DNA from: a virus
Length of the DNA stretch: 64,000 nt
IMG/VR virus record: IMGVR_UViG_3300032163_000001
Coordinates: 110,249-174,248 of that record
Strand: one strand, 5' to 3'
Shown here: positions 16,116-60,909 of the stretch, piece by piece
Layout: each line of letters opens with the position of its first letter
How positions within the stretch are numbered: position 1 is the first letter of the stretch
Program-made: the position numbers and the translations under genes
The notes under the pieces: model-generated
What the model was told of the DNA's origin: nothing
The model's input: the letters and a program-made list of their open reading frames with translations, nothing else
Databases searched by the model: none

Positions 16116-17225
16116 TTATACTGGTTCTTCTCTTGACCCTAAGTAACAGCCTTTATTCACTCCACTATGGAACCATTTCATATGTCTCATAAGTTCTTCG
16201 TTAGTAGGACCTTCTTCAGATGGTAAATAAGAAACTTCTATGTAAATTTGAGTACATCTACACTCACCATCATAAAATCGAGACATAACATCTCCAAAAT
16301 ATTGTAGAGCATTAACTCCCTCTCCATTTACCCCATCAACAGTCCAAGTATTCCCGGTTTTTGGATTGTCATACCACAGATTTGCTTCCTCAACATAAGA
16401 AGTCTCAAAAGAATGGGCCCCTGATATATATACATGACCTCCAACTTGTATCGCCAAGTTCACGTAACCTGCATGACCTGTATCTACGCTTCTTACTAAA
16501 GCATAAACCTTAACATAATTAATTAATGAACCTTGCGGTATGTTAAAAGACAAAAACCCATATAAATCTTGAGGATCGAAACTACTAACTTCTATATAAA
16601 GTTGAGAAACGTAATATGTTGTTTCAGGACTATCAACCCCATACCCAAATGTATAGTTAGTATGCAAACTATTTATTTCTTCTGGTGTCCAAGGCTCATT
16701 TGTAAACGGATTTATATTTAGTCCCCAGCAAGTTGTTTCCCAATACTCATTGACTGGAAGATACTGTAACATATTACCAAGTCTTACATAAAATTTATCA
16801 CTATTTGATCCAGATAACTGTTGAGCCCGAACATAAATTTTAACAGACTCAATTACTCTATTAATAGGTATATTAAAACTTCCCATTGTAAATTCATCTG
16901 TACCTGCAGAGTCTGTATAATTATAATCATAATCCTCTTCAGGATATTCATTTATAGTTTCATATAGGTAAGATCCTTCTGACGGAGTCCAAGCAACATA
17001 TAAATCAGAAATTGGAAACTGTCGTTGCGTATAGAATGGTTCAGTTATACCGTTTATATAACAATAAGTAGCATCCCCATCGTGATTTCCTATCGGATCA
17101 TCCACAAGAGCATAATTGTAGTTTCCACCAGATCGGAGTTGTATAACATTAACATCAGATGTTGGAACTCTATTTTGAATTTCCATAGTATTATCCCAAC
17201 CAGCAACCTTTATTTTCTCCACCAT
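16116..17225 (-). CDS. Tail fibre/receptor-binding candidate carrying the conserved C-terminal ELMRHMKWFHSGVNKGCYLG motif
   Basis: 369 aa, Tyr/Asn-rich. C-terminal motif is shared with the upstream 824-aa gene. Confidence 0.5.
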   Translation of the reverse strand: MVEKIKVAGWDNTMEIQNRVPTSDVNVIQLRSGGNYNYALVDDPIGNHDGDATYCYINGITEPFYTQRQFPISDLYVAWTPSEGSYLYETINEYPEEDYDYNYTDSAGTDEFTMGSFNIPINRVIESVKIYVRAQQLSGSNSDKFYVRLGNMLQYLPVNEYWETTCWGLNINPFTNEPWTPEEINSLHTNYTFGYGVDSPETTYYVSQLYIEVSSFDPQDLYGFLSFNIPQGSLINYVKVYALVRSVDTGHAGYVNLAIQVGGHVYISGAHSFETSYVEEANLWYDNPKTGNTWTVDGVNGEGVNALQYFGDVMSRFYDGECRCTQIYIEVSYLPSEEGPTNEELMRHMKWFHSGVNKGCYLGSREEPV

Positions 17226-19665: not shown

Positions 19666-19681
19666 TAAACTCCACCTTGGC

Positions 19682-20506
19682 CTATCCTACATACTCAATT
19701 GTTATAGCACCAATTTTTACATACTTACTATTTTGACTATACATACGAATTCGTATATTTAAAGTATCTCCTACTGCGAGATTTGAGATCACATTATCAT
19801 CATCAAAAAACTCTGCTGCTATAGTACCTTCTCTTTCTGAAGCCCAATCTCCAGCAGTTTCTGATACTATATCTGTTATACTAGAAGTAGTAGCTGATCC
19901 ATCTTTAGAAAGTATGATATCAATCTTATTATCTGCCGTTGAATCATCTTCTGTACAGATATCAACAATTATTGCAACTATATCATTAAAGTTAAGAAAT
20001 GTTTCAGGAACTCTCCATTGAAAAGAAATATCATAGCTTTGGAAAGTTACTTCATCAGAAACCCACTTATAGAAATTATAATTAAAATCATTATGGGTTT
20101 CCATATCTGTAGTCATATTTCCAATATTTGCACCACCAGGAGATGCAACGAATGTTGCTCCAGCAAATTCTGGAAAAAATACTTCTTTTCTTGAAAATCT
20201 AACATAATCTTTTGTTACATATTTATTTGTAGCACTTGGAGTTTCTTCTCCAGCTAGTGCTGCTTTCTGGTCTGAAGTTGGTCCAACATCTGATACATCT
20301 TTTAAAGCTACATCTAATTTATTAAGGCTTTCACCATGTGAATCTGTATGATCTATATAGTTTTCTTCGGTATATGACCTGCTACCAAAAACAGCATCTA
20401 TTATATCGAAGTTATTATTTAGAACCTGATCCCACGACTCAAAAGTTTCAGGATCTCGGTGAGATGGTTTCCTTAAGTTTAAATCCTCAGTATAGTTTGA
20501 AGACAT
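19682..20506 (-). CDS. Hypothetical tail/baseplate protein
   Basis: 274-aa ORF, tightly packed in the structural operon. Confidence 0.4.
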   Translation of the reverse strand: MSSNYTEDLNLRKPSHRDPETFESWDQVLNNNFDIIDAVFGSRSYTEENYIDHTDSHGESLNKLDVALKDVSDVGPTSDQKAALAGEETPSATNKYVTKDYVRFSRKEVFFPEFAGATFVASPGGANIGNMTTDMETHNDFNYNFYKWVSDEVTFQSYDISFQWRVPETFLNFNDIVAIIVDICTEDDSTADNKIDIILSKDGSATTSSITDIVSETAGDWASEREGTIAAEFFDDDNVISNLAVGDTLNIRIRMYSQNSKYVKIGAITIEYVG

Positions 20507-20534
20507 TTTTATTCTCCTTTACAATTTCCAAAAT

Positions 20535-21437
20535 TTATTCATCTCCGTTTAAGCCATAGTAACGAAAACCATACCACCAAGCACCATAGCCTGGTTTAAA
20601 CCATTTAGTATAGTCATCTGGAAAGTCTGGACTAATCTCAAAAGCTTTGATGTAGTTTGCCTTTTCTCTAGTATTATATTCTTTTTCATTCGAGATATCT
20701 AAAGATACATCAAATACTTCATATCTAGGTTCAACTACAAATAATCTTATTTCACAAATACCGATACCATATAGAGATATATCATCTCTAGGAACTAATC
20801 TTAACTCTAGAGAGCTAATTTCGTTACTAGTAAATTTTCTACTAAAAATTTTTTCCCAAAAGACTGTTTCCCAAGTTGAACTAAAAAATATTTCATCAGG
20901 TTTTAGTACACGCCATGAAGAACCTACTTTAATTATCGCACTTAAAGGAAAACTATTAGGAGGTCCAGATAGTTGTCTACCTCTAACTGCTATATCAATC
21001 CATCTATCTATCGATGAAGTTTCAACATCGTTAAAACCAAACGTAATAGCCTTAGAAGATGGATATTCAAATAAAGGTAGTGTTTGAGAAACGATTGTGA
21101 TTAATCTATTTTCTGAATAATGTTGTATTTCTCTTGGACTTGTTACTAGAGCAATAATTGTAGTATATAATAATTCGGGATAATAATATTGTATATCATG
21201 AGTATTAGTATCATACCAAACTATCGTAAAACTTGGTCCTTCAATATAATGTTGTAAGTCTTGAATAGACTCTTCAGAAACTATACTAAATAACGGTGTT
21301 TCAATATAGTTTTGTAAGTCTTGAATAGACTCTGCAGAAACTATATTAAACAATGGCGCTTCAATATAATTTTGTAAGTCCTCTATATCTATATCTATAG
21401 TAGACGTAGAATCGAGTTCTTCTTCATAAGTAGGCAT
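20535..21437 (-). CDS. Hypothetical structural protein with three tandem 19-20 aa repeats (IQDLQNYIE.PLF.IVS.ES)
   Basis: Protein repeats correspond to roughly 60-bp DNA tandem repeats. Confidence 0.45.
   Translation of the reverse strand: MPTYEEELDSTSTIDIDIEDLQNYIEAPLFNIVSAESIQDLQNYIETPLFSIVSEESIQDLQHYIEGPSFTIVWYDTNTHDIQYYYPELLYTTIIALVTSPREIQHYSENRLITIVSQTLPLFEYPSSKAITFGFNDVETSSIDRWIDIAVRGRQLSGPPNSFPLSAIIKVGSSWRVLKPDEIFFSSTWETVFWEKIFSRKFTSNEISSLELRLVPRDDISLYGIGICEIRLFVVEPRYEVFDVSLDISNEKEYNTREKANYIKAFEISPDFPDDYTKWFKPGYGAWWYGFRYYGLNGDE
21243..21400. repeat. About 2.6 copies of a 60-bp tandem repeat inside the 20535-21437 gene
   Basis: TCAATATA(A/G)T(G/T)TTGTAAGTCTTGAATAGACTCT(T/G)CAGAAACTATA(C/T)TAAA(T/C)AA(C/T)GG(T/C)G(T/C)T repeated head-to-tail. 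Confidence 0.6.
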
Positions 21438-30773: not shown

Positions 30774-33245
30774 ATGGCGGCTCCACAAGAAAGTAATGTA
30801 GTATTATCACCAAATGAGTTTGTATTTGTTCAAGACTCTACGAAAGGAGAGATTAAGTGTTTAGCAGGACCTTACAAAACAGGTCTTACTGGTGAAGATT
30901 TTCCAGTCATATTTAATAAAGATTCAAAAAAGTTTGAAAAAGTAGATCTTTACAAAGCTACTCAACTTTTTGCTATTGCACCTGAAGGTTGGTATATTAT
31001 TTTGAAAAATCCAGCTGGACAATACCCTGATCCAGGAAAAGCAAATATCCCTATTCCACTTAATATGGGCAGAAAAATTAACATTCCAGGTCCAGTTAGT
31101 TTTGCTTTATGGCCTGGTCAAATGAAAAAAGTAGTCCAGGGCCATCACCTTCGATCAAATCAATATTTATTAGTTCGAGTTTATGATGAAGGTGAAGCTA
31201 TAAAGAACTTAGATAAAGCAATTATCAAACGAGTAGAAACTGAACCACCAGAGAAAAAAGAAGCTCCTCAAGAATCTAAAGTAGAGAAAAAAGAAGAAAT
31301 CAAAAAATCTGAGTTTGCTGTATCAGATTTAACAATGGGAAAACTTCTAATTATTAAAGGAACAGATGTAGCATTCTATATTCCTCCAACTGGTATTGAA
31401 GTAGTAGCTCCAGAAGATAATAAATATGTTAGAGAAGCAGTAACTTTAGAAACTTTAGAATACTGTATTCTTCTAAATGAAAATGGCAATAAAAGATATA
31501 TCAAAGGTCCAGCTGTAGTTTTTCCAGAACCAACTGAAACTTTCATTCAATCTAATGGAAAGAAAGTATTTAAAGCATATGAACTCAACGAAATATCTGG
31601 TCTTTATCTTAAAGTCATCTCAGCATATAGTGAAGATGATAAAGAATATGAAGTAGGACAAGAATTATTTATCACTGGTGCAGAACAAGCGATTTATTAT
31701 CCAAGACCAGAACATGCGATTATAAAATATGGAGATCAAGAAATCCATCATGGAATTGCTATCCCAGCTGGTGAAGGTAGGTACGTCCTCGATAGACTTA
31801 GTGGGTCAATTTTATTAAAGAAAGGTCCATGTGTTTTTTTACCAGATCCGAGACACCAAGTAATTGTTAGAAGAATTTTAGATTTAAGTACAGTTGATCT
31901 ATGGTATCCGGGGAACCTAGAAGCTAGAGAGTATAACTCTTTTTTATTGAACATGCTGCAAGAAACTAGGGGTTTTGCGCCAAAAGAGGGAGTTAATTAT
32001 ATAGACCAACAAATGTATTCTTCTAGAGTAGCACCTCAAGCAAAAGGTTTTGTGGCTGACGAAGTCAAACGAAAAAATGTATACACACCCCCTCGAACAA
32101 TCACTTTAGATACTAAATATGAAGGAGTTCCAATCATCAAAGTTTGGACCGGTTATGCTGTATTAATAACTAGTAAAACTGGAAAAAGAGAAATGGCTAT
32201 TGGACCAACTCCGGTTTTACTACAATATGATGAAACTTTAGAATTTATGGAACTTTCTACAGGAACTCCAAAAAGTGATACTAACTTACATAAGACTGTT
32301 TACCTTAGAGTGTTAAACAATAAAGTTTCAGACATAGTCAAAGCTGAAACTAAAGATCTTTGTCCCATTAGTATACAAGTTTCATATCGAGTGAATTTTG
32401 AAGGAGAAACTAGTAATTGGTTTAACGTTGAAAACTATGTAAAGTTCTTAACAGATCATTTAAGGTCTTTAATTAGAAGTAATATTAAACAATATGGAAT
32501 TGAAGAGTTCTACTCAAATTCAATTTCTATTGTTAGAGATTGTGTTTTGGGAAAGTCAGATGGAGAAAAGAGACCAGGAAGAGCATTTGATGAAAATGGG
32601 ATGAGAGTTTATGAGTGTGAAGTTTTAAACGTTGAAATTAGTAATGATACTGTTAAAAGGATGTTAACTGATGCTCAAACTGTATCTGTACAAAACACAA
32701 TTAACTTAGCAAAGAGCAGAAGTAATCTATCATTTACGACAGAAAATGAAGATATCAAAAGAAAAATTGAAGGAGAAGTACATAAAAGTTTTATTAGTTC
32801 CTCAGATATAAAGATTGATTCAACAAAGAGGATACTAATAGAAAATTTAGAAAAGATTAAATCATCATATAAAGAAACGATTGAAAATATTAACTACTCT
32901 TTAGAAAAAGTCAAATTAACGGAAGGTGTTACAACTCAAGAGGTTTCCAATCTTAAAATTCGATCCGACTATGATTATAAAGTCAATCAACAAGACCAAA
33001 TCTTAGGACTAGAAAAACTTAAAGCAGAAAACGAAGCTGAAATTAAGAAAGTTGAAGCCGTCTCAAAAGATTTAATTGCAGCTCTGCAGTCTTTTGGTGA
33101 TCAGATTGCTCTAGAGAAAGTTACTCAATCACTAGCTCCTCTGGCTTTACTTGGTGGAGGTTCAATAGCTGACGTAGTTAATAAACTACTAAAAGGAACA
33201 GTTCTTGAAGGGATTTTGGCTAAAAAAGTTAAAGAAGTAACGTAG
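30774..33245 (+). CDS. Major vault protein (MVP) homologue: N-terminal MVP-repeat domains, SPFH/band-7 shoulder, C-terminal cap-helix-like coiled coil
   Basis: Repeats such as LYLKVISAYSEDDKEYEVGQELFITGAEQAIYYPRPEHAII resemble human MVP [41 protein letters not shown]. Shoulder MAIGPTPVLLQYDETLEFMELSTGTPK ... ISIQVSYRVNFE ... FNVENYVKFLTDHLRSLIRSNIKQYGIEEFYSNSISIVRDCVLG resembles MVP [27 protein letters not shown] ... LQLQLAYNWHFE ... [44 protein letters not shown]. C-terminal ALQSFGDQIALEKVTQSLAPLALLGGGS resembles MVP [28 protein letters not shown]. Length 823 aa versus 893 for human MVP. Confidence 0.7.
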   Translation: MAAPQESNVVLSPNEFVFVQDSTKGEIKCLAGPYKTGLTGEDFPVIFNKDSKKFEKVDLYKATQLFAIAPEGWYIILKNPAGQYPDPGKANIPIPLNMGRKINIPGPVSFALWPGQMKKVVQGHHLRSNQYLLVRVYDEGEAIKNLDKAIIKRVETEPPEKKEAPQESKVEKKEEIKKSEFAVSDLTMGKLLIIKGTDVAFYIPPTGIEVVAPEDNKYVREAVTLETLEYCILLNENGNKRYIKGPAVVFPEPTETFIQSNGKKVFKAYELNEISGLYLKVISAYSEDDKEYEVGQELFITGAEQAIYYPRPEHAIIKYGDQEIHHGIAIPAGEGRYVLDRLSGSILLKKGPCVFLPDPRHQVIVRRILDLSTVDLWYPGNLEAREYNSFLLNMLQETRGFAPKEGVNYIDQQMYSSRVAPQAKGFVADEVKRKNVYTPPRTITLDTKYEGVPIIKVWTGYAVLITSKTGKREMAIGPTPVLLQYDETLEFMELSTGTPKSDTNLHKTVYLRVLNNKVSDIVKAETKDLCPISIQVSYRVNFEGETSNWFNVENYVKFLTDHLRSLIRSNIKQYGIEEFYSNSISIVRDCVLGKSDGEKRPGRAFDENGMRVYECEVLNVEISNDTVKRMLTDAQTVSVQNTINLAKSRSNLSFTTENEDIKRKIEGEVHKSFISSSDIKIDSTKRILIENLEKIKSSYKETIENINYSLEKVKLTEGVTTQEVSNLKIRSDYDYKVNQQDQILGLEKLKAENEAEIKKVEAVSKDLIAALQSFGDQIALEKVTQSLAPLALLGGGSIADVVNKLLKGTVLEGILAKKVKEVT

Positions 33246-35242: not shown

Positions 35243-35623
35243 ATGTATCATTATTTAATTACAGTAGGTATTCAAGAAATAGATTCGTCTCTTGCAGGAA
35301 AAATGTATTTAGATAACTTTTTATCATATGATGACAAAGCAAGAAAAAATGTGGAGTCTTGTCAAAAGTTGTCACAAGATCATCTGTTTAAAACCACTCC
35401 AGAACAGTCTGCTGAAATATTTGACTGTAGTAGATTATTAAATGACTTACAAATGATACTAATAAGATGTAAAGTTCAAAACACAATTTTACTACACTAT
35501 ATATCTGAAGATCAATTAGATAAATGCTTTTTCGAAGAATGGGTAATGGTGAACTCTTTAGAAGAACTTAAAAAAGCTCAAGTGGGGAAAGGAGAGGTTC
35601 TCAAAGATGGACATAATTTATAG
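35243..35623 (+). CDS. Hypothetical protein
   Basis: SD AAAGGAGAAGAAATG. 126 aa. Confidence 0.4.
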   Translation: MYHYLITVGIQEIDSSLAGKMYLDNFLSYDDKARKNVESCQKLSQDHLFKTTPEQSAEIFDCSRLLNDLQMILIRCKVQNTILLHYISEDQLDKCFFEEWVMVNSLEELKKAQVGKGEVLKDGHNL

Positions 35624-36017
35624 TTGGCAAGAGTTCGAAAACGACTGTTACGATATCCTAAGACTTTTGTCTAAACTAAAAGAAGTCAAGAACATTTTTG
35701 GAATTCCCAGAGGAGGATTGATACTAGCTGTTAGACTTTCACATTTACTATCAAAACCAGATCACAAAGTACCGTTAATTTTGAGAGATGAAGAAATAGA
35801 ACCAGAAACTCTTATAGTCGACGACATTTCAGACTCAGGAAAAACTTTACTAGAATACTGCTCTTACTACCAAACCAGTTTATCTATTACATTATGGATA
35901 TGTAACGAAACAAAATTTACACCATCGTTCTTTTTAAATACAAAAAACAAGGGTGATTGGATAGTATTTCCATGGGAACAAAACTACCGGGGAACTGCTG
36001 TTGATCCTGAATTGTAA
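35607..36017 (+). CDS. gpt: Xanthine-guanine phosphoribosyltransferase-like (Gpt, type I PRTase)
   Basis: FGIPRGGLILA and PRPP-binding LIVDDISDSGKTL. C-terminal DWIVFPWEQ resembles E. coli Gpt TWIEQPWD. 136 aa. Confidence 0.65.
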   Translation: MDIIYSWQEFENDCYDILRLLSKLKEVKNIFGIPRGGLILAVRLSHLLSKPDHKVPLILRDEEIEPETLIVDDISDSGKTLLEYCSYYQTSLSITLWICNETKFTPSFFLNTKNKGDWIVFPWEQNYRGTAVDPEL

Positions 36018-38360: not shown

Positions 38361-38428
38361 AATTATATCAGATATCTATAGCACTAAAACTATTGTAAAG
38401 ATAATACGTTGAAAGGGAGGTGAAAACA

Positions 38429-39352
38429 TTGAGCTTAAATGAATTAATAGGTAGAAAATCAGTTGGTCGTCCTTGTGTCCCTACTTTAAATTTCATAGTA
38501 GGAAATAGACAATGTAACATGGAGTGTAAATATTGTATTTCTAAAATGACGAAGGCTGAGTTATCTAAACGAGGAGAGGTTTCTCCTTTATGGTATAGAA
38601 ATAGACGTTTAGCTTTTAGCGTAGCAAAGAAGTTTAGTACTGATACAGTGTTAATCACAGGAAAAGGAGAACCAACTATCTGGAAAACAGAATTACTAGA
38701 TACTATAGCAAGAGCTAGTGACGAAGGATTTATTACAGAACTTCAAACAAATGGAGTTTTATTAGATGAATCTTATTGTATTCATCTTGCTGGAGCAGGT
38801 CTTAATACTATAGCTATTAGTAGAGTCACAGTTGATACAGCTACGAATAATTGGATATGTGATCCTATACATTTTAGTACTCCAAATTTACACCAGTTAA
38901 TTCCAATGATCCAAAGACTTGAAATAAAGATGAACATTCGAATTACTTTTGTAGCTATGAAAGGTTACAATGACTCAGTTGAAAAGATAGAGAAAACATG
39001 TCTTTGGGCTTTATCGAATGGAGTTAAACAAGTTACTATTAGAAGAATGGGGATGCCAAATCTTAGTTCAATTGAAAGTTTAGATAGTGCATTCGAGATC
39101 GAAAAATTTGTAACAGATAACCTTGTTCCAGATGAAGAATGGAAAAAGATCATAGATTTCTTTATGAAAGAATACACTATTTTAAGAGTTTTTGACTGGG
39201 GCTCAATCAGCTGGTCTATTAATGGAGTCCAGTGTTTAATAGCTGATTGTTTAACAGTGCCAGGATTAGATGGCACAATCAGGTATCTTATATATTATCC
39301 TGATGGTCATTTAAGATATAGTTGGGAACACGATTCTACAATAATTTTTTGA
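38429..39352 (+). CDS. Radical SAM enzyme (CxxxCxxC; viperin/MoaA-like core), function unknown; start uncertain (TTG 38429 or GTG 38420)
   Basis: RQCNMECKYC, GKGEP glycine motif, LQTNGVLLDE and LNTIAISRVTVD resemble viperin IVSNGSLIRE / LDILAISCDSFD and MoaA. Confidence 0.6.
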   Translation: MSLNELIGRKSVGRPCVPTLNFIVGNRQCNMECKYCISKMTKAELSKRGEVSPLWYRNRRLAFSVAKKFSTDTVLITGKGEPTIWKTELLDTIARASDEGFITELQTNGVLLDESYCIHLAGAGLNTIAISRVTVDTATNNWICDPIHFSTPNLHQLIPMIQRLEIKMNIRITFVAMKGYNDSVEKIEKTCLWALSNGVKQVTIRRMGMPNLSSIESLDSAFEIEKFVTDNLVPDEEWKKIIDFFMKEYTILRVFDWGSISWSINGVQCLIADCLTVPGLDGTIRYLIYYPDGHLRYSWEHDSTIIF

Positions 39353-39386: not shown

Positions 39387-39460
39387 TCAGGAGTCGTCTA
39401 ATTTAGGCAGGACATTTGACTTTGAATCAAAAAATAAAGGTTCGATTCCTTTCTCCTGAA
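39387..39460 (+). tRNA. tRNA-Gln (anticodon UUG)
   Basis: Acceptor TCAGGAG/CTCCTGA perfect 7 bp. D-arm GTCT..GGAC. Anticodon arm TTTGA-CTTTGAA-TCAAA (U33, anticodon TTG, A37). T-arm AAAGG-TTCGATT-CCTTT. No encoded CCA. Confidence 0.75.
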
Positions 39461-39539: not shown

Positions 39540-40160
39540 ATGGATATATGCAGTTATGGTTGTGGATTAGAAGCAAAATATACTTTAAAAAACGGAAAGT
39601 TTTGTTGCGAACGAAGTTGTAATCAATGCCCTGAAGTAAGAAAGAAGAATAGTCTTTCTTTAAAAACAAGTTCTCATTATATTAGATTTAACCCAAGTAA
39701 AATAATGGATACTTGTACTTTTTGTAATAAATCAATTCCATATCCTTCAAAAAAAGGACACGAAAAGAGCTGTTATTTAAATCCAAACAACTTAAAATTA
39801 TGTATAGTTTGTGAAAAACCCATTAAGAACTATAAGTTTAATATAACATGTTCCCATATATGTGCAAATGGACACTTTAAACAAAATACAAAAAATGGAA
39901 TTCATTGTGATGAATACAGAAGAATCTGTTTTAAGTATCACAAAAAAGAATGCATTATATGTGGTGAAAGTAATATTGTACATGCTCACCATTTAGATAA
40001 AAATAAAGAAAATAACTCTCCCAAAAACTTAATTCCCTTATGTCCTACTCACCATTATTATATGCATTGTAAACTTAAAGAATTAATAATCAATAAAATC
40101 GAGTCTTATTTAAGAGAGTGGGAAAACTCAATGTTACTCTCAACCAAAATCATAATATAA
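39540..40160 (+). CDS. HNH homing endonuclease with N-terminal C-x-YGCG zinc-finger module
   Basis: ICGESNIVHAHHLDKNKENNSPKNLIPLCPTHH is an HNH motif. N-terminal MDICSYGCGLEAKYTLKNGKFCCERSCNQCPEVRKK is shared with the 48857-49615 gene. Confidence 0.65.
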   Translation: MDICSYGCGLEAKYTLKNGKFCCERSCNQCPEVRKKNSLSLKTSSHYIRFNPSKIMDTCTFCNKSIPYPSKKGHEKSCYLNPNNLKLCIVCEKPIKNYKFNITCSHICANGHFKQNTKNGIHCDEYRRICFKYHKKECIICGESNIVHAHHLDKNKENNSPKNLIPLCPTHHYYMHCKLKELIINKIESYLREWENSMLLSTKIII

Positions 40161-40177
40161 AAAAAGGAGGGTATGAA

Positions 40178-40573
40178 ATGTGTTTGAATCTTACAGTAAA
40201 AAGAATAGCTGAAAAAGATATTAAAGTTTGGAAAGTTTTTAGAAAAGAAGACCGTGAAGAAATATCTTTCTTATTTAGAAATATCAATGGAGGCAAGTTA
40301 TATGGCAACTGTTTTCCAGTTCCTAAAGAACTCCCAGAAGTATCATATGGATACCATGCATTTTTGAGCGAAGAAGCAGCTAAAGATTATATAGCATCCA
40401 TGTCTGTAGCTTTATGGGATCATAAAGACTTTGTTATAAAAGAGTTCTACATAAAGGAAGAAGACGAATATGAAATTGGATTCATACCATGGCCTTTTAA
40501 AGGATCAGGATTACAGAGTGTAAGATCTAAAAAGTTGTTTGCTCAAGAACAACTGCAAGAAGAAACAAAATAA
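40178..40573 (+). CDS. Hypothetical protein (start set to ATG 40178 after GGAGGG)
   Basis: 131-aa ORF. Confidence 0.4.
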   Translation: MCLNLTVKRIAEKDIKVWKVFRKEDREEISFLFRNINGGKLYGNCFPVPKELPEVSYGYHAFLSEEAAKDYIASMSVALWDHKDFVIKEFYIKEEDEYEIGFIPWPFKGSGLQSVRSKKLFAQEQLQEETK

Positions 40574-40602: not shown

Positions 40603-40890
40603 ATGGCTAAATTTATAGACTTTGTTGATAAGAAATTTATATGTGATAACTGCAAAAAAGTTATTCAAGGAAAAGAAATTGTCTTAGAATTAGCTCCAAC
40701 TAATTTTGATATATTAACTCCTCTTCACCCACTCATTTTTATTGATAAAGATGGGATTATCAAAGGAGGTTCTAAATTTGCAGACGGGTCTATTGGGGAC
40801 CAAATATTGAACTGTCCAAAATGTAATTACCCTCATTTATATGGATTTACACCATATGAAGAGAAAACATTAAAAGAGATGGGTCGGTAA
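40603..40890 (+). CDS. Small zinc-ribbon protein
   Basis: CDNCKK...CPKCNYPH. The stop codon overlaps the tRNA 5' end. Confidence 0.4.
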   Translation: MAKFIDFVDKKFICDNCKKVIQGKEIVLELAPTNFDILTPLHPLIFIDKDGIIKGGSKFADGSIGDQILNCPKCNYPHLYGFTPYEEKTLKEMGR

Positions 40891-40957
40891 GCTTAACTGG
40901 TTAAACTGCTGGACTCCAAATCCAGTCTTCGGGGTTCGAATCCTCGCCGGCCTGCCA
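40881..40957 (+). tRNA. tRNA-Trp (anticodon CCA)
   Basis: Anticodon arm CTGGA-CTCCAAA-TCCAG. T-arm CGGGG-TTCGAAT-CCTCG. Acceptor GGGTCGG/CCGGCCT (2 G-U pairs). Discriminator G and encoded CCA. D-arm is atypical. Confidence 0.65.
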
Positions 40958-40977
40958 ATAAAAGAGGAGGTGAAAAT

Positions 40978-42141
40978 ATGATAATTAATTCGATTCTTGA
41001 CAACGATTTATACAAGTTCACAATGCAACAAGCCGTTTGCCAACTGTATCCATCTGCTCACGCTAGATACGAATTTATTAACAGAGGCAAAACGATATTT
41101 CCACCTGACTTTGATCGTAAATTAGAAAGTGAAGTTAGATATTTTAGTGAATTTAAACTTGGTAAATATGAAAGGCATTTTCTTAATGATATCTATTTTC
41201 TTTATCCTCCCTATATAGACTTCCTTGATGGTTATAAATATAATCCAAGCGAAGTTCAAATAGAACAAAAGCATGGGGATTTAAAGTTAATAGTTGAAGG
41301 TCCTTGGTATAGGGCTATTTTATGGGAAGTACCTCTACTTGCTTTAATCAGTGAACTGTACTTTAAAGAAATAGGGGATATTGGTCCTTTCGCAGGTTAT
41401 GAATCAATAGCTAAAGGAAAAGCAGCTAGATTAAGAGATATTGGTGCTAAATTTGCTGACTTCGGAACTAGGAGAAGGTATTCCTATGAAGTTCAAAACC
41501 ATGTCATTGGGGCTTTAGAAAGTGGAGGAGGTATCTTCTTTAATGGAACTAGTAACGTTTATTTTGCTATGCAACATCAAGTTAGGGCAATAGGCACTCA
41601 GGCGCATGAGTGGATGATGTTTCATGCGTCACAATATGGTTTTCATCTAGCTAACCAGATTTCGATGGAAAAATGGGTGGACACTTATCAAGGAGACTTA
41701 GGTATTGCTTTAGCTGATACTTATACTTCAGATGCTTTTTTCAAGTCGTTTAATACAAAGTTCTCTAAACTTTATGATGGCGTGAGACAAGACTCTGGAG
41801 ATCCAATAGAATTTGCAGATAAAGCAATTAAACATTATGAAAAATTAAGAATAGACCCAACAACTAAAACCATTGTTTTTAGTGATGGGTTAGATGTAAA
41901 CAAAGTAGAAGAAATTGAGAAACACTGTAGAGGAAAGATTAGGACTTCCTACGGGATAGGGACTAACCTAACGAATGACGTAGGAGTCAAACCTTTAAAT
42001 ATTGTTATAAAAATGACTGCGTGTAAATCTACTCTTAGTGATCCTTGGACTAATACATGCAAATTGTCTGACGTTCCCACTAAATATACTGGAGATCCTG
42101 AAATGATAAAACTATGTAAACAAGTTTTGGAGATACAATAG
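40978..42141 (+). CDS. pncB: Nicotinate phosphoribosyltransferase (PncB)
   Basis: DNDLYKFTMQQAV, GPWYRAILWEVPLLALISE, FGTRRRYSYEVQ, IGTQAHEWMMFH, VRQDSGDP and KPLNIVIKM align motif-for-motif with E. coli PncB. SD AGAGGAGG. Confidence 0.8.
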   Translation: MIINSILDNDLYKFTMQQAVCQLYPSAHARYEFINRGKTIFPPDFDRKLESEVRYFSEFKLGKYERHFLNDIYFLYPPYIDFLDGYKYNPSEVQIEQKHGDLKLIVEGPWYRAILWEVPLLALISELYFKEIGDIGPFAGYESIAKGKAARLRDIGAKFADFGTRRRYSYEVQNHVIGALESGGGIFFNGTSNVYFAMQHQVRAIGTQAHEWMMFHASQYGFHLANQISMEKWVDTYQGDLGIALADTYTSDAFFKSFNTKFSKLYDGVRQDSGDPIEFADKAIKHYEKLRIDPTTKTIVFSDGLDVNKVEEIEKHCRGKIRTSYGIGTNLTNDVGVKPLNIVIKMTACKSTLSDPWTNTCKLSDVPTKYTGDPEMIKLCKQVLEIQ

Positions 42142-42154
42142 GAGGAAAAACAAA

Positions 42155-43039
42155 ATGCAAAACCTAGTAGAAAAATTTCGAAAAGCTGGATTAAGTACTG
42201 TGATCTTAAAAGAACCTATACGTCGTCAAGGAAGAGGAATGGAAGATATTGTTCAAATAGACATCCAAAGAAACGTTAAAGGTTTTAACCGACGCGAAAG
42301 ATTTAGACTTTACCCTGGTGATAAAAGTAATATAATTCAAGTTCGAAACATTGATCCTAATCTCAAACAACTCGTACTTTTCGTTAAAGAGCCAGTTCGA
42401 GAGTTTGATAACGTTACTCAATTAAACAGTTTTACCACATTTAAAAGAGTCAAAGAAGAAGCAGAGAAAAGTCTCCATAAACCTGTTAGAATTTTTAAAG
42501 TTGGAAACGAAGCACATGTAGTTATGAAAACTTCAGAAGGTGTTCGTTATTTCCTCTGTGGAGTAGATGAGCGACAACTATTTATTGCTCAGTTAACTGG
42601 ACCAGCAACTACTGTAGAAGAGGCAAGAAAACTTCTTGGAAAAACTGTTCAATTTGCAGATGGAAAAAGACGAGGAAGTTCAGTAGATAGACAGGGAGAA
42701 TGGTTCTTCTTAGAAACGAAACAAAGTACTAGAGACGAAATTGAAAGAGCAATTAGAGGAACTAGAACTGCTATTCAGCGGAAAGTCGCTATTGGTAGAT
42801 TTTTGGGTCGTCCTAGCACTAATCTCCATATAGTCGATGAACTAGTTATTCTTCCTTTTCAGACAGTCACTAACCGTGATCCAAATAGGTTACAGAGACG
42901 TCAAGTATTTGTTCGAGGATCTATTCGACATAGAGATCACAAAACTGTTAAATTTTCTAATTGGAGAGAGGTAATTGCTAACAACGAATCACAATCTACT
43001 GCTCGAGGAAGTGCTTCTGGAGTTTTTTGGGTAGACTAA
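42155..43039 (+). CDS. Hypothetical protein co-transcribed with pncB
   Basis: SD AGGAGGAAAAACAAAATG. 294 aa, Arg-rich. No NMNAT (H/T)xGH or Nudix box seen. Confidence 0.45.
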   Translation: MQNLVEKFRKAGLSTVILKEPIRRQGRGMEDIVQIDIQRNVKGFNRRERFRLYPGDKSNIIQVRNIDPNLKQLVLFVKEPVREFDNVTQLNSFTTFKRVKEEAEKSLHKPVRIFKVGNEAHVVMKTSEGVRYFLCGVDERQLFIAQLTGPATTVEEARKLLGKTVQFADGKRRGSSVDRQGEWFFLETKQSTRDEIERAIRGTRTAIQRKVAIGRFLGRPSTNLHIVDELVILPFQTVTNRDPNRLQRRQVFVRGSIRHRDHKTVKFSNWREVIANNESQSTARGSASGVFWVD

Positions 43040-44991: not shown

Positions 44992-46446
44992 TTAGTCACC
45001 AATCTCTAGAGCACAGATTCCAAGCACACGAACTAGAGCTGTAGCATATCGGGAAAGAATCGTTAAGCTGGGAGTTGCTCCTAGTGGCCATGGATGTAAC
45101 ACTGCTGGAACGTATGGGCTGTAGAAGTAAACGCTCTTAAGTTCATCTGGACTCTTAAGAACTACAACCATAGTACCTTGTGTAACTACTGCAGATGTTA
45201 ACACTTTCCATTTTCCACCAGCTAACGTAGCTGCTCTGTATCCAAGTTCTCCATCAAGAACTGAAGTTCCAGTATAAACAAATGAGTTAATATCTTCAAG
45301 AATAGCAGCATCCAATGGGTTAACAGCAATTGTATTTCCACCTTCAATATTAGTATCAGTATAGATTCTGGCAGAAAGACCATTTAGTACAGGAATAATG
45401 TTTTCATGCCAGTATTTTGGTCCCCAGAGATATCCACCTGGAGGCGTTCTATCGAAACCAGAAATATGGTTACTTGGATTCAATCTGGTGTTAGCAGTAA
45501 TCAATGAATTTATGATCTCTCTATCAATATCAAGAGCAATTTGTAGACCAAGTAGATTAACAATTTCTGCCTGAACAGAGACATCAAATAATGCTCTCAT
45601 GTCCTGTTCCATGTTGATTGACCAGTTAGCAGAAATCTGTCGATCTTTTGCATAAAGACGAATCTTATCTACAGTTAAAGTGATTTTTGGATTAACTTTA
45701 TTTTCCTCAAGAGAACAAGTCACCTGGTAACGAACAGAAGTAATATCACTACTTGCACTAGAAATAGAAACTGTTCCATTTAGATAATCAACTTTTCCAG
45801 AAATAACGTCATCTGGAAATGAAAGGCTAAATCTAACACTCTGAGAAAAATGACCTTCAACTGCTGGAATTATAGAAACATTAACAAAATGAGTTCCATC
45901 ATGACTTATACCTGTGATTTCGAAATCTCTTTCAAGATGAGCATCAGCTGAGGTAATTCCAGCTACTCCAAGAATATCATAGTTAATACTAGGAACATCC
46001 ACATGCGCAGTAAAAGGAATTCCAATAGAAGGACCACCAGAAATATCTGTATCAGTAACTGGTGCTGCAGCTGCTGTTCCACCGTAAGGAGTAAAAGTAG
46101 CTCTAATAAAAGCTTTCACGCATTCTGGTTTATCCATTGGAGAAACCGTAACTAATTCTTTAGCAATCAATTTTGGATAGAAAACTCGAAGAATAGGCAA
46201 GGTCAAAGTTTCGTAAGGGTTAATCTGGAACATAGAGTTTTCAAGTAAGCTAATTCTAGTGTTCTCAGCTAACAGTTTAAAAACTTCCTGATCTTGTTTA
46301 TTCGTAATTGATTCGGCTAAAGAAGTAACGTATGCGGAAAATGCCGCATCATCAACCAAAACCGCTTTTAAATTACCGGGTTTGGAAGGATCGATCCCTG
46401 ACAACTTCTTAGTTGTTTTGTAAGCTTCCATTAAAATATGCTTCAT
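44992..46446 (-). CDS. Major capsid protein (T4 gp23-like)
   Basis: TLPILRVFYPKLIAKELVTVSPMDKPECVKAFIRATF resembles T4 gp23 AVMGMVRRAIPNLIAFDICGVQPMNSPTGQVFALRAVY. LGLQIALDIDREIINSL resembles LATEIMLEINREVVDWI. YFYSPYVPAV resembles IYYAPYVAL. 484 aa. Confidence 0.75.
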   Translation of the reverse strand: MKHILMEAYKTTKKLSGIDPSKPGNLKAVLVDDAAFSAYVTSLAESITNKQDQEVFKLLAENTRISLLENSMFQINPYETLTLPILRVFYPKLIAKELVTVSPMDKPECVKAFIRATFTPYGGTAAAAPVTDTDISGGPSIGIPFTAHVDVPSINYDILGVAGITSADAHLERDFEITGISHDGTHFVNVSIIPAVEGHFSQSVRFSLSFPDDVISGKVDYLNGTVSISSASSDITSVRYQVTCSLEENKVNPKITLTVDKIRLYAKDRQISANWSINMEQDMRALFDVSVQAEIVNLLGLQIALDIDREIINSLITANTRLNPSNHISGFDRTPPGGYLWGPKYWHENIIPVLNGLSARIYTDTNIEGGNTIAVNPLDAAILEDINSFVYTGTSVLDGELGYRAATLAGGKWKVLTSAVVTQGTMVVVLKSPDELKSVYFYSPYVPAVLHPWPLGATPSLTILSRYATALVRVLGICALEIGD

Positions 46447-56687: not shown

Positions 56688-56969
56688 TTAATTTCCTCCT
56701 ACCATCTTTCCATAGATTTCACCTTCTTTTAAAACCTTTAAAATTTTCTTACCATTCATAACAGCTTGCCCACCATACTTCGCAAAAATGACTATATCCC
56801 CAGGTTTCAATATAGATACAACTTTTGGACCAACAGAAAGCACGTATCCATAGCATTGTGGTCTACTACTAACAGTTTCTGGGATGACTATACCACCCTC
56901 GCTAATTTCTTCTACTTCTTCTAGTACATCAACAACAACATGATCATTTAAAGCTTCGATTGTCTTCAT
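56688..56969 (-). CDS. groES: Co-chaperonin GroES (Cpn10) homologue
   Basis: EEISEGGIVIPETVSSRPQCYGYVLSVG and LKPGDIVIFAKYGG align with E. coli GroES [27 protein letters not shown] and VKVGDIVIFNDGYG. 93 aa. Confidence 0.75.
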   Translation of the reverse strand: MKTIEALNDHVVVDVLEEVEEISEGGIVIPETVSSRPQCYGYVLSVGPKVVSILKPGDIVIFAKYGGQAVMNGKKILKVLKEGEIYGKMVGGN

Positions 56970-57666: not shown

Positions 57667-60600
57667 TCAAAACTTTAAGATGTTTTCATTTCTTCCTATT
57701 AACGGTTCTAGCATCAGTTTATATCTGTCAACCCATGAAAACTTAATCATTTCTTTTATATCTATATTGTAATAATTTGGTAGAGAAAGTTCTTCATCCG
57801 GTAAACATATAACATCTAACTTCTTATTTTTAGATAAAAATTCTTTACTGTATCGTTCTAAAACTTCTTTAGGAGCTATTTGATCATTTATTCCATTTAT
57901 CTTAAATAAATATCCTTTCGAACCATGAGCAAATATTTGATATTCTAAAACATTCCAGTTCAAAAAACCAATTACGTTTTGCGGAATCCTTTTATAATCA
58001 TCTAAATCTTTAGTAAAAGATGCTGGTCTAGCTACACTTTTTTCTCCTCCAGTAACTCTCTGAAAAAATTCTGTTTCTTTTGAATCAATAAATTTTTTAG
58101 TTGCAAACATAGAAAACTTTTCCGACTTCAAAATTAAATCTAAAAGTTCTTTTAGACATTCTTTTGTATAACTTGGATAATCGGATCTTTTAGTATCTAA
58201 ACCCATACTTTTAATTTCATCTGTTTCTGTCCCTTCTTCAGAGATAATGTATATAGAATAATGTTTTTTACTTAAAAATAATCCTCTCTTAATAACTAGT
58301 TCATTCTTTAAATCTAATCTATTATATTGTAAACTAACATTATGCTTTTCAACAAGTTTCTCTACAACATCTTTATTTAAATAAGATCGAATTTGATCAC
58401 ATAAAACTTTTACTTCTGCAACTTTCTCATTTTCATTCTTTCCTTTAATTAAAGAATCTAGACTTAAAAATACAGAATCAGTATCACCAGTAATAACATG
58501 TTCAATCTTTCTATCTAATTCTCCAAACATTTCTTTTTTATTTAATCTAGTTTGTTCAATGTCTTTTTTGACTCTTAGAGATTCAACAAATACGTCAGAA
58601 GAAACAATAGTTGATTTTAAAAATTCTTGACCACTTAAAGTAATACTTATTGCGCAATCTATATTATAAAATCTATAAGCTGCATTACCAAGAACTCCAT
58701 ACATAGCATTCGCTAAAACTTTAAAAACTAACTGTCTAACTTCATACAATTCTTCTTCAGATTTATTCTTTGCTTGTTTTGCTTCGAACATTTTCTTCTT
58801 AACTACTTTTCTAGATTGTAAAATATATTCTAATATTTCACTATAAAATGATAATTCGGTTCTATGAGGTTTAAAGAAACATCCATTTATTGTATATGTT
58901 AAATTAGATTCTATAATTTTCTCTATCAATTGTTCTCTAGTAATTTCCATTTCTTGAAGAGTTAAGTCAGGATCTAATATAACAGAAAGTTTCTCTGGTA
59001 ATTTTTCTGGTTGATAAATAAGATCATACCCAAGTGTATGGTCCTTAAGCTTCATAACAATTGTATTAAAACCAACATTAAATGTTTGAATTATACTAGG
59101 ATATAGTGATGTAAAATCAAAATCAACTATCCATTCATGTAAACCAACCTTAGGTTCTTTTACATAAGCTCCTGCAAAAGCTTCATCTTTTAACTGAACA
59201 TTTGCATTTCTAGAAGCATACCCTTTGGATTTTAACCAAGAAGATACTAAAGAATCTAATTGACCCATTGCATTTAGCGCTGATTGAAACGTACACTTAC
59301 ATATCTTTTTTAACTCACTAGCTAAAGAAATATGTTTAACTTTATCTTCTAATTTAACTGTTAGTAAAACGTCTCTTCTATTGTATTCAATCGCTTTATT
59401 TACATCATCTCTAAACATCTGGGAGAAGTTTGATCCACTATCTAATTTACTTTCTTTTAGTTCTATCTGTGCTATCGTTCCAAGTCTATAGTTTTCTTTC
59501 TTTGTAGGTGTAAAAGTCCTGTATAAAGTTAACTGGTCAAGAATTATAAAACCATAAATATCTGCGTAACCCTTATCTCCATCAATATTTACTTCTCCAA
59601 GTTTAGATAGAAGATCTTTGTTTATACCTAATTTTTCACATCGATTAGTTAAATATGGAATATCAAACCATGAAAGATTCCAACCAGTTATAACGTCTGG
59701 ATCTATTACTTTAATATCCTTTATGAATGTAGTGAGCAAATCTTTTTCACTTTTAAACACAAGAATTTCATCTGATGCTTTTATAGCTTGAAGAGAAGTA
59801 TCTTTTAAAAGAATTCTATTATCCATAACATACGTTACAATTTTATCTTTATAACCATAACTAATCATACAAACTGGATCTTTTGCTTCAGCAATATTAG
59901 GGAACTCTTTCTTAATACTATACACTTCTATATCTAAAAACATTATATTAAGATCCAAATTCTCTTCTTCTGGTTTTTGGATATAATAGTCATTAGAATG
60001 TTTAGTTACTAATTTGAAATCTCCATCATAAGTAACTTCATGGTCAAGTCCATACTTTTCTCTGTATAAAACTTTCATCTGAAATAGTTCATCATACTTC
60101 ATTACTTTTTTAGCTAAAACACCATCAGGTACTTTATAACAATAATAATCATCATTCTCCCTATGAAAAACTTTCTTACTATCTTTATCTTTAAAGATAT
60201 AAAGAACTTGGTTACTTCTATGTAAATATTGAATATCTAAAAGTTTGTAGTCTTTAGTGTAAAACTTATCTTCTATTTTATAAAAATGAATTCCCTTCTT
60301 TTCTAACTTTTCTACTTTCATAGAAGAAGATACAATTCCAGGAATACCCAAATATGCAGATACATATCTCATATCTTGATCAAACTTTTCTTCAAAACTT
60401 CTATTCCTAGAAACATATGAAGGATGGACCGTAAAAAATACGTCATGTTCTTTCCATCGAAACATCTTTCCTCTGAAGCTTGTTATATGAGCATCTTTAT
60501 CAAAAATCTCAAATGCTTTTCCTGCAGTCCCTCCCATTAGAACAATTAGCTTGGCATTACTACACTGTTCTATGATCTTAAAGCAATTTTCTTTACAAAG

Positions 60601-60909
60601 ATCTATAGTTCGATCACTTGGATTTATAGTTGTTTTTCTTTCTTTATCTAATGTCTGACAAAGAACTACGTTCGTCAAAAGATACTTAACACTGTTAAGT
60701 TTATACATACTAAAATATTTTCGAAATAATTGTCCAGTTTTTCCTATAAGTGGAACTTCTTTTTCAACCTCATCTTTCCCTGGATTCTCTGCAACAAAAA
60801 TTACTTTTATTTGATCAAAAGATTCTGCATTTGTTTCAAGTATACAAGACTTCTCTCCAAATAATTCACATGAAGAACAATCAGCAAAACTATTTTTAAT
60901 ACTAAACAT
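57667..60909 (-). CDS. Family B DNA polymerase with N-terminal family-4 uracil-DNA-glycosylase-like domain
   Basis: ITGDTDSVF (Pol C motif YGDTDS). DIEVYS exo I. N-terminal roughly 170 aa carry CSSCELFGEKSC, AENPGKDE (UDG4 GE.PG..ED) and VHPSYV (HPS). Confidence 0.8.
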   Translation of the reverse strand: MFSIKNSFADCSSCELFGEKSCILETNAESFDQIKVIFVAENPGKDEVEKEVPLIGKTGQLFRKYFSMYKLNSVKYLLTNVVLCQTLDKERKTTINPSDRTIDLCKENCFKIIEQCSNAKLIVLMGGTAGKAFEIFDKDAHITSFRGKMFRWKEHDVFFTVHPSYVSRNRSFEEKFDQDMRYVSAYLGIPGIVSSSMKVEKLEKKGIHFYKIEDKFYTKDYKLLDIQYLHRSNQVLYIFKDKDSKKVFHRENDDYYCYKVPDGVLAKKVMKYDELFQMKVLYREKYGLDHEVTYDGDFKLVTKHSNDYYIQKPEEENLDLNIMFLDIEVYSIKKEFPNIAEAKDPVCMISYGYKDKIVTYVMDNRILLKDTSLQAIKASDEILVFKSEKDLLTTFIKDIKVIDPDVITGWNLSWFDIPYLTNRCEKLGINKDLLSKLGEVNIDGDKGYADIYGFIILDQLTLYRTFTPTKKENYRLGTIAQIELKESKLDSGSNFSQMFRDDVNKAIEYNRRDVLLTVKLEDKVKHISLASELKKICKCTFQSALNAMGQLDSLVSSWLKSKGYASRNANVQLKDEAFAGAYVKEPKVGLHEWIVDFDFTSLYPSIIQTFNVGFNTIVMKLKDHTLGYDLIYQPEKLPEKLSVILDPDLTLQEMEITREQLIEKIIESNLTYTINGCFFKPHRTELSFYSEILEYILQSRKVVKKKMFEAKQAKNKSEEELYEVRQLVFKVLANAMYGVLGNAAYRFYNIDCAISITLSGQEFLKSTIVSSDVFVESLRVKKDIEQTRLNKKEMFGELDRKIEHVITGDTDSVFLSLDSLIKGKNENEKVAEVKVLCDQIRSYLNKDVVEKLVEKHNVSLQYNRLDLKNELVIKRGLFLSKKHYSIYIISEEGTETDEIKSMGLDTKRSDYPSYTKECLKELLDLILKSEKFSMFATKKFIDSKETEFFQRVTGGEKSVARPASFTKDLDDYKRIPQNVIGFLNWNVLEYQIFAHGSKGYLFKINGINDQIAPKEVLERYSKEFLSKNKKLDVICLPDEELSLPNYYNIDIKEMIKFSWVDRYKLMLEPLIGRNENILKF

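Follow-up and report, generated by a model that had tools for sequence, protein, structure and literature searches.

Three pathways by which phages replenish nicotinamide adenine dinucleotide (NAD+) have been shown experimentally: NARP1 (Adps and Namat) and NARP2 (NadV and NatV), in a report that does not mention PncB (bioRxiv 10.1101/2024.02.11.579819), and NARP3, which consists of PnuC and NadR (PMC13464706). A 2022 survey of viral NAD+ and ADP-ribose systems included only NadV, NadM and NadR (PMC9503650), and pncB-nadD-nadE clusters were reported computationally from jumbo phages in 2024 (PMC11662467); the PncB route is thus already known as a genomic feature of phages. A separate body of work concerns tRNA genes and RNA repair: two papers link HNH and rtcB genes to long tRNA arrays in bacteria (PMC8421152) and describe in Anabaena a translational-stress regulon of TrcR comprising a trn array, rtcB, an HNH gene and an operon of a hypothetical gene plus a slipin gene (PMC10272220). 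Here we compare with these systems a locus from a 64 kb stretch of phage DNA (positions 110,249 to 174,248 of IMG/VR record IMGVR_UViG_3300032163_000001, a metagenomic contig of 185,628 bp), referred to below as the window. The locus comprises a tRNA-Trp gene, a pncB gene encoding nicotinate phosphoribosyltransferase (NAPRTase) and a gene for a 294-aa protein, which an earlier note made from the sequence alone had taken together as an NAD+ salvage module that might counter NAD-depleting defences, the 294-aa protein being the possible missing partner of PncB. Our analysis makes it probable that pncB and the 294-aa gene are instead two functionally unrelated accessory genes standing side by side, one host-derived and concerned with NAD supply, the other an RNA-associated orphan, and that insertion made them neighbours.

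The most direct evidence that the 294-aa gene is independent of PncB comes from synteny with a related phage (locus L007), which encodes a protein 66% identical to the 294-aa protein and has no pncB. This phage and the window have in common a Ros/MucR-like gene, a 116/126-aa gene, a dNMP kinase gene (DNMK) and the downstream open reading frames (ORFs). In L007 the 294-aa gene directly adjoins the dNMP kinase gene, and the block formed in the window by the radical S-adenosylmethionine (radical-SAM), tRNA, HNH and pncB genes is absent. Because L007 keeps the gene next to the kinase without this block, the adjacency of pncB and the 294-aa gene in the window is best attributed to a lineage-specific insertion or rearrangement, in which the block would have inserted beside the 294-aa gene and so created the present arrangement. 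Within this phage lineage, conservation of the 294-aa family does not depend on pncB.

The neighbours of pncB in other phages lead away from the 294-aa protein as well. A pattern scan of IMG/VR gave 548 confirmed stretches encoding PncB, whereas tblastn found only 13 deposited phage records with the gene; for the best 80 loci, ORFs within ±10 kb were clustered and the clusters confirmed with Pfam. PncA was present at 57 of the 80 loci, NadE at 56 and NadD at 29, so that 65 loci had at least one of the three and 15 had none within 10 kb; PTH2 was found at 17 loci and a Nudix protein at 14. A radical-SAM protein of about 300 aa occurred at 24 loci, in 16 of them within 1 kb of PncB. The commonest order among the closest relatives was dCMP deaminase, NadE and PncA, then, after intervening genes, the radical-SAM gene, small ORFs and PncB, with PTH2 further downstream. 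Metallophosphoesterases and GIY-YIG homing endonucleases also often accompany the phage PncA-PncB-NadE-NadD cassette (L172-L251). By contrast, the 294-aa family was represented at only three of the 80 phage PncB loci, all on contigs (those of L078, L065 and L050) that had already been found from the side of the 294-aa family. PncB was absent from the first four homologue contexts inspected and from all 80 cellular loci of the family that we surveyed. Taken together with L007, these counts do not support the 294-aa protein as the missing partner of PncB.

The window itself was searched in six-frame translation with hidden Markov models (HMMs) built from these phage neighbours (57 PncA, 56 NadE and 29 NadD sequences, and also PTH2, Nudix and radical-SAM proteins). 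No PncA, NadE, NadD, PTH2 or Nudix gene was detected in the 64 kb by this search, nor by Pfam annotation. The only gene matched was that of a 310-aa radical-SAM protein (38420-39352, + strand; E 1.9e-38; Pfam Radical_SAM), which, since its family of about 300 aa recurs just upstream of phage pncB, is a likelier true companion of PncB in the window than the 294-aa protein. In NCBIfam this radical-SAM protein has only weak, sub-threshold matches to viperin-like and MoaA-like families. The window thus holds a reduced form, radical SAM followed at a distance by PncB, of the PncA-PncB-NadE-NadD cassette (with radical SAM and, in some cases, PTH2) that is widespread in phages. It shares with the phage Preiss-Handler clusters, both those published (PMC11662467) and those collected here from IMG/VR, the PncB clade (50-57% identity to L172-L195) and the upstream radical-SAM gene, but differs from them in having no PncA, NadE, NadD or PTH2. 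Of the proposed NAD+ salvage module, therefore, an intact PncB remains, while the 294-aa gene is not its partner and the window lacks PncA, NadE and NadD.

The PncB assignment itself proved correct. The 387-aa product (40978-42141, + strand) scores well above the NCBIfam cutoffs (TIGR01514, 427.1 bits against 269.55; NF003704, 471.5 bits against 379) and has the full-length two-domain architecture in Pfam (NAPRTase_N, PF17767, 104 bits; NAPRTase, PF04095, 212 bits), and among solved structures it is best matched by 2IM5 (E 3e-109), from Porphyromonas gingivalis. The motifs GTQAHEW, DFGTRRR, DSGD and GIGTNLTND are all intact; H210, R165-R167, D272-S-G-D275 and G326-I-G-T329 are invariant in an alignment of 20 sequences and align with 2IM5 and 1YIR. 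H210, in the GTxAHEW motif, presumably corresponds to the histidine that is autophosphorylated in the Salmonella enzyme. Inactivation by loss of catalytic residues, which the earlier note had named as grounds for abandoning its proposal, is not seen, and by its sequence the protein is predicted to be a bona fide NAPRTase of the Escherichia coli type. It resembles bacterial PncB (TIGR01514; 2IM5) in its two-domain architecture, its equivalog-level score, its phosphohistidine motif and its PRPP- and nicotinate-site motifs (PRPP, phosphoribosyl pyrophosphate), and differs in being phage-encoded, in a base composition that has drifted towards that of the phage and in being split from the rest of the pathway. 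Among named cellular proteins those of Bacteroidota are closest to it (55-60% identity), and for this reason the gene appears to be a host-derived auxiliary metabolic gene and the phage host is probably a member of the Bacteroidota. As the base composition of pncB (GC 0.35, GC3 0.25) matches that of the phage, its acquisition is unlikely to have been very recent.

If active, PncB would make nicotinic acid mononucleotide (NaMN) from nicotinate, PRPP and ATP. It has in common with NARP1, NARP2 and NARP3 the concept of a phage enzyme that feeds NAD+ pools and could thereby offset NADase defences, but it would take the deamidated route through NaMN and require PncA, NadD and NadE from the host, and neither PncB nor the 294-aa family takes part in any of the three; on this point, that the PncB route is distinct from the phage pathways shown by experiment, the earlier note was right. 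Because the window encodes no PncA, NadD or NadE, the phage would be unable on its own to convert nicotinamide back into NAD+, and PncB would be limited to boosting the host pathway, raising flux solely through the host Preiss-Handler route and leaning on the host enzymes for the other steps. More NaMN could benefit phage replication where this makes demands on NAD, or could compensate in part for NADase defences, although the same absence of PncA, NadD and NadE weakens the case for an anti-defence role. From what is known of the pathway, PncB would thus act as a helper in NAD supply, with a possible role against NAD-depleting defences. In the searchable literature we found no experimental test of the PncA-PncB-NadE-NadD cassette against NAD-depleting immunity.

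The 294-aa protein (42155-43039, + strand) belongs to a very large family that has no name. One database search returned 322 homologues and an exhaustive profile search (E≤1e-3) 2,175 cluster representatives, and because of these numbers the ORF can be regarded as a real gene rather than a chance reading frame. The representatives are almost all single-domain proteins of 250-320 aa, and every member that is named in its source record is called 'hypothetical protein'; one exception in architecture is a 523-aa protein (P0362) that carries the family at its C terminus and has no Pfam domain in its N-terminal half. With 35 arginine residues (11.9%) and an isoelectric point of 10.6, the protein is as Arg-rich as the earlier note had described it, and basicity is a property of the family, whose median isoelectric point is 10.0 and whose aligned full-length members all exceed 9. 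Some 20 residues, including the C-terminal Asp, are strongly conserved across phages and cells. Invariant or nearly so are G136, D138, E139, F143, R179-Q-G-E-W-F-F185 and H225 and, in the C-terminal part, G255, H259, H262, T264, W270, E278 and, as the last residue, D294. The conserved motifs, among them G136-x-D138-E139 and G255..H259-x-D-H262-x-T264, are also seen in members linked to RtcB.

No known family or fold was recovered for the protein. It had no match in Pfam, PHROGs, NCBIfam or PADLOC, which agrees with the earlier observation that it shows no NMNAT or Nudix motif; 45 members of the family searched against Pfam at E≤1 gave scattered noise only, searches of the Protein Data Bank sequences by phmmer or with a profile gave nothing credible, and Foldseek against the viral structures of BFVD gave nothing at E≤0.001. 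As to particular activities, neither the query nor the 45 members matched CTP_transf_like in Pfam or NCBIfam and the (H/T)xGH motif of an NMN/NaMN adenylyltransferase is not among the invariant columns, whereas genuine phage NadD neighbours do match PF01467. The isochorismatase fold with its catalytic Cys, the SGGxDS PP-loop and the Nudix box, by which PncA, NadE or a Nudix enzyme would be recognized, were likewise not found. Two further candidates were considered and rejected. For a 2H phosphoesterase, suggested by H-x-T at 262-264, both a second HxT motif and a matching fold are lacking, and for a cupin or 2-oxoglutarate oxygenase, suggested by HxD...H, no fold matched either. What looked like a fusion of the family to RtcB in L118 proved to be an ORF-calling artefact with the two parts in different frames.

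Members of the family occur on chromosomes as well. Among species-representative genomes, those of Acidobacteriota, Myxococcota, Planctomycetota, Verrucomicrobiota and Asgard archaea contain at least 536 stretches with a member, some of them on contigs of several megabases, and one member is from a cultured isolate, Blastopirellula sp. JC732. The Asgard members come from metagenome-assembled genomes (MAGs) of Promethearchaeota and Hermodarchaeota (L113, L116, L127-L129, L133, L137 and L142), and several of these genes lie downstream of paired ABC-transporter genes.

Eighty of these cellular loci were surveyed, the neighbours within 10 kb being clustered and confirmed with Pfam. RtcB was found at 11 of the 80 loci, SPFH/Band_7 proteins at nine and Ro60/TROVE at nine, a count to which proteins with only a vWA domain may have been added by the jackhmmer TROVE model; sigma-54 activators also recur beside the cellular genes. 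For a gene that is typically present once in a genome of about 5 Mb, the chance of lying in a 20-kb segment picked at random should be well below 1%, an order-of-magnitude estimate from typical genome size rather than a computed value. In MAGs of Polyangia, Obscuribacteraceae and Verrucomicrobiota, and in phage locus L044, rtcB follows the 294-aa family gene directly and in the same orientation (+19 to +254 nt). Among phage loci of the family, RtcB occurs at six and TROVE-like proteins are also present; HNH genes were found at 16 loci, phage and cellular taken together. Phage loci of the family are rich in tRNA genes, 25 of 74 having at least five, and a tRNA gene lies within 500 nt of the 294-aa family gene at 15 of 74 phage loci compared with 4 of 80 for PncB (Fisher p = 0.006). 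At the chromosomal loci the tRNA genes form long arrays, 12-38 of them per 20 kb. In unrelated lineages, then, the family gene is repeatedly embedded in tRNA arrays and stands beside an RtcB, TROVE or SPFH gene on the same strand.

This set of neighbours, RtcB, TROVE, SPFH/slipin, HNH and dense tRNA arrays, is the gene set reported for the long tRNA arrays and the TrcR regulon, which with the RNA-repair operons of RtcB, Ro60 (Rsr) and Y RNA are the closest known systems for the family; the 294-aa family itself is not described in the available parts of the array and TrcR papers (PMC8421152, PMC10272220), and the window differs from those systems in having neither RtcB nor TROVE. The 294-aa gene in the window has two tRNA genes upstream, neither more than about 2.8 kb away, and, about 9 kb upstream, a gene with a major-vault-protein (MVP) shoulder domain, which is related to SPFH. 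In Planctomycetota and Verrucomicrobiota, long tRNA arrays (L144, L156, L158, L160, L162, L165 and L168, some on multi-megabase contigs) contain TROVE, 294-aa family, HNH, RtcB and Band-7 genes in conserved orders. Other RNA-related genes also occur at phage loci of the family. At locus L010 genes for an RNA ligase (PF09414) and for an RlaP nucleotidyltransferase (PF10127) lie no more than about 8 kb from the 294-aa family gene (1-896 and 16385-16828); tmRNA genes are present in the tRNA and accessory regions of L037 (14184-14536), L050 (10782-11140) and L051 (4693-5108), that of L050 starting about 180 nt downstream of the 294-aa family gene; and tRNAs with a CUA anticodon (ARAGORN 'tRNA-Pyl', of amber-suppressor type) in the large-phage loci L015, L024, L036, L040, L050 and L053 hint at TAG recoding.

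Our tentative proposal, to which we would give somewhat less than an even chance, is that this family (more than 2,000 clusters at 50% identity, possibly with a new fold and with a conserved Asp/Glu/His site) is an unrecognized component of RNA-repair (translational-stress) systems built on tRNA arrays and RtcB/Ro60, common to jumbo and T4-like phages, bacteria of the PVC group (Planctomycetota and Verrucomicrobiota), Myxococcota and Asgard archaea, in which it would act as an RNA-end-processing enzyme or as a tRNA-binding cofactor and help phages to survive tRNA-cleaving defences. Judged by its context and charge, the 294-aa protein probably binds RNA, most likely tRNA; through its invariant Asp, Glu and His residues it may process damaged RNA ends, perhaps in a metal-dependent manner, or it may otherwise aid an RNA-repair or translational-stress response that counters tRNA-cleaving defences.

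A number of observations weigh against the view of the locus put forward here. There is no RtcB or TROVE in the 64 kb of the window, so that the link to RNA repair is transferred from relatives. Around PncB in the 80 phage control loci, TROVE (13/80), RtcB (3/80) and NADAR (5/80) are about as frequent as around the 294-aa family; since the linkage to RtcB and TROVE in phages is not above this control, the weight rests on the cellular loci and on tRNA proximity. Genes for NAD supply, ADP-ribose processing, RNA repair and tRNAs sit together in a single accessory island of phages, and some of the signal from phages is unspecific. Some of the tRNA-dense MAG contigs could be mis-binned phages or mobile elements, full-length members in Myxococcota stand in unrelated, vertically conserved contexts (a transglycosylase, a mechanosensitive channel), and no fold or sequence homology backs any biochemical activity of the family. 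Finally, PncB lies within 10 kb of the 294-aa family gene at five of 68 distinct phage loci, namely the window, L078 (829 nt) and L050, L059 and L065 (4.7-6.9 kb), and L078 has the gene run NadE-PncA-GIY-PncB-x-PTH2-294-aa family-NADAR, which would fit a loose link with NAD and ADP-ribose.

These last loci, among them L078, also speak for the original idea of a two-gene unit for NAD+ reconstitution in which pncB is co-transcribed with the 294-aa gene, with the 294-aa protein supplying a missing step as a NaMN adenylyltransferase, an amidase/NAD synthase or a nicotinamidase. The two genes are on the same strand, only 13 nt separate the pncB stop from the next start, the terminator scan found no terminator-like site between them and co-transcription is probable; the invariant Asp, Glu and His residues of the family, moreover, look enzymatic. 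We nevertheless consider this explanation very improbable, as the missing steps at phage PncB loci are filled by canonical PncA, NadE and NadD (57, 56 and 29 of 80) and not by the 294-aa family, which is present at only three of these loci. PncB is also absent from all 80 cellular loci of the family and from L007, which has the 294-aa family gene. The family shows no HIGH/CTP_transf_like, PP-loop, isochorismatase or Nudix signal and has no conserved Cys, and L078 already holds canonical NadE and PncA, which would make the 294-aa protein superfluous for completing the pathway.

A connection with NAD of another kind, in which the family would work on ADP-ribose or on NAD-derived adducts and by-products (such as ADP-ribosylated nucleic acids or what NAD-dependent RNA repair leaves behind) and the PncB, NADAR and ARPP-1 neighbours would reflect a common NAD/ADP-ribose theme rather than NAD synthesis, seems to us unlikely. 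NADAR adjoins the 294-aa family gene in L078 (+19 nt) and L043 (overlapping) and is 728 nt away in L016, ARPP-1 adjoins it in phage L027 (-15 nt) and in Blastopirellula sp. JC732 (63 nt) and is nearby in L015 and L020, and both NADAR and ARPP have been tied to ADP-ribose processing and RNA repair (PMC9503650). Such links are confined to a handful of loci, however; NADAR is equally frequent around PncB, the family has no similarity to Macro, ARG, NADAR, 2H or Nudix folds, and RtcB-type repair does not use NAD. There is also little probability, in our estimation, that the 294-aa protein is a counter-defence protein that binds or inhibits a host immune protein or signal, its neighbours merely reflecting a hypervariable accessory island. 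Anti-CBASS and anti-Thoeris genes do occur close to the family, Acb5 in L002 (10517-10855) at a distance of about 1.6 kb and, in L010 (11423-11632), an Acb2/Tad1-hairpin protein at about 2.6 kb, the neighbourhood is highly variable and the gene is among the early or accessory genes of large phages. Against this, the family is widespread and conserved on megabase-scale chromosomes of Myxococcota, Planctomycetota and Verrucomicrobiota and in Asgard MAGs, its adjacency to RtcB is tight and operon-like, inhibitors that evolve fast do not typically keep some 20 residues, here with the C-terminal Asp among them, so strongly conserved, and PADLOC gave no match. We retain the reading of an NAD-supply gene beside an unrelated, probably RNA-associated one.

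The remaining features of the locus are those of the tRNA and accessory-gene region of a large T4-like myovirus. The window has a GC content of 33% and contains T4-like markers, namely a Gp23-type capsid gene (44992-46446), Portal_T4, sheath, DnaB and a PolB fused to a uracil-DNA glycosylase (UDG). Among the 50,697 deposited phage records of INPHARED, no match was obtained by megablast of the region or by tblastn of the 294-aa protein. ARAGORN predicts two tRNA genes in the window, tRNA-Gln (anticodon UUG; 39387-39460, + strand) and tRNA-Trp (anticodon CCA; 40881-40957, + strand), both confirmed by Rfam, which mark a small tRNA region holding the cassette. RF00005 matches the tRNA-Trp gene at 40881-40954 with 44.7 bits (gathering score 29), and bases 40955-40957 are an encoded 3' CCA. 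The tRNA-Trp, pncB and 294-aa genes all lie where the earlier note had placed them, and the overlap that it described is also present, the TAA stop (40888-40890) of a preceding 95-aa ORF (40603-40890, + strand; no Pfam or PHROG match) falling inside the 5' end of the tRNA gene. Downstream, the PncB ORF is preceded by an AGGAGG-type ribosome-binding site and the 294-aa ORF by its own TAGGAGG site; a promoter scan was at background (24 sites against 21 expected) and uninformative. Between the two tRNA genes lies a 206-aa ORF resembling HNH homing endonucleases (39540-40160, + strand; PHROG HNH families, best E 1.2e-10), which overlaps by about 40 nt the start of the ORF that follows (40118-40573, + strand). 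The placement of the HNH ORF and this overlap would fit a local gene order put together by mobile-element activity.

Several genes further away in the window deserve mention. The MVP-shoulder gene (30774-33245, + strand) encodes an 823-aa protein in which the shoulder domain (PF11978) scores 95 bits and is accompanied by a vault repeat (PF17795); it recalls the Band-7 genes that adjoin the 294-aa family in bacteria, and phage locus L023 has a close homologue (19635-20855) some 9 kb from its 294-aa family gene. To our knowledge, MVP-like proteins are unusual in phages. A type-I phosphoribosyltransferase of 136 aa (35607-36017, + strand), weakly similar to xanthine phosphoribosyltransferase, is encoded about 6 kb upstream of the 294-aa gene, and small type-I phosphoribosyltransferases are found near the family in two more phage loci (L036, 14966-15373; L040, 11784-12218). 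The 1,080-aa PolB (57667-60909, - strand) carries its UDG domain (PF03167) at the N terminus, and a gene for a Cpn10/GroES-like co-chaperonin (about 56688-56969, - strand) is located near it.

For the most part, then, the supposed module is ordinary, its pncB being one more case of the NAD-supply genes already catalogued in large phages, and the rejection of the proposed partner enzyme spares an experimental detour. Worth keeping is the finding that phage contigs often carry the PncA-PncB-NadE-NadD cassette of the deamidated route. The more interesting residue is the 294-aa family, which is very large, conserved and basic and has no detectable fold relatives; if it is indeed an RNA-repair factor, it would be a new part for a system whose substrates and cofactors are poorly understood.

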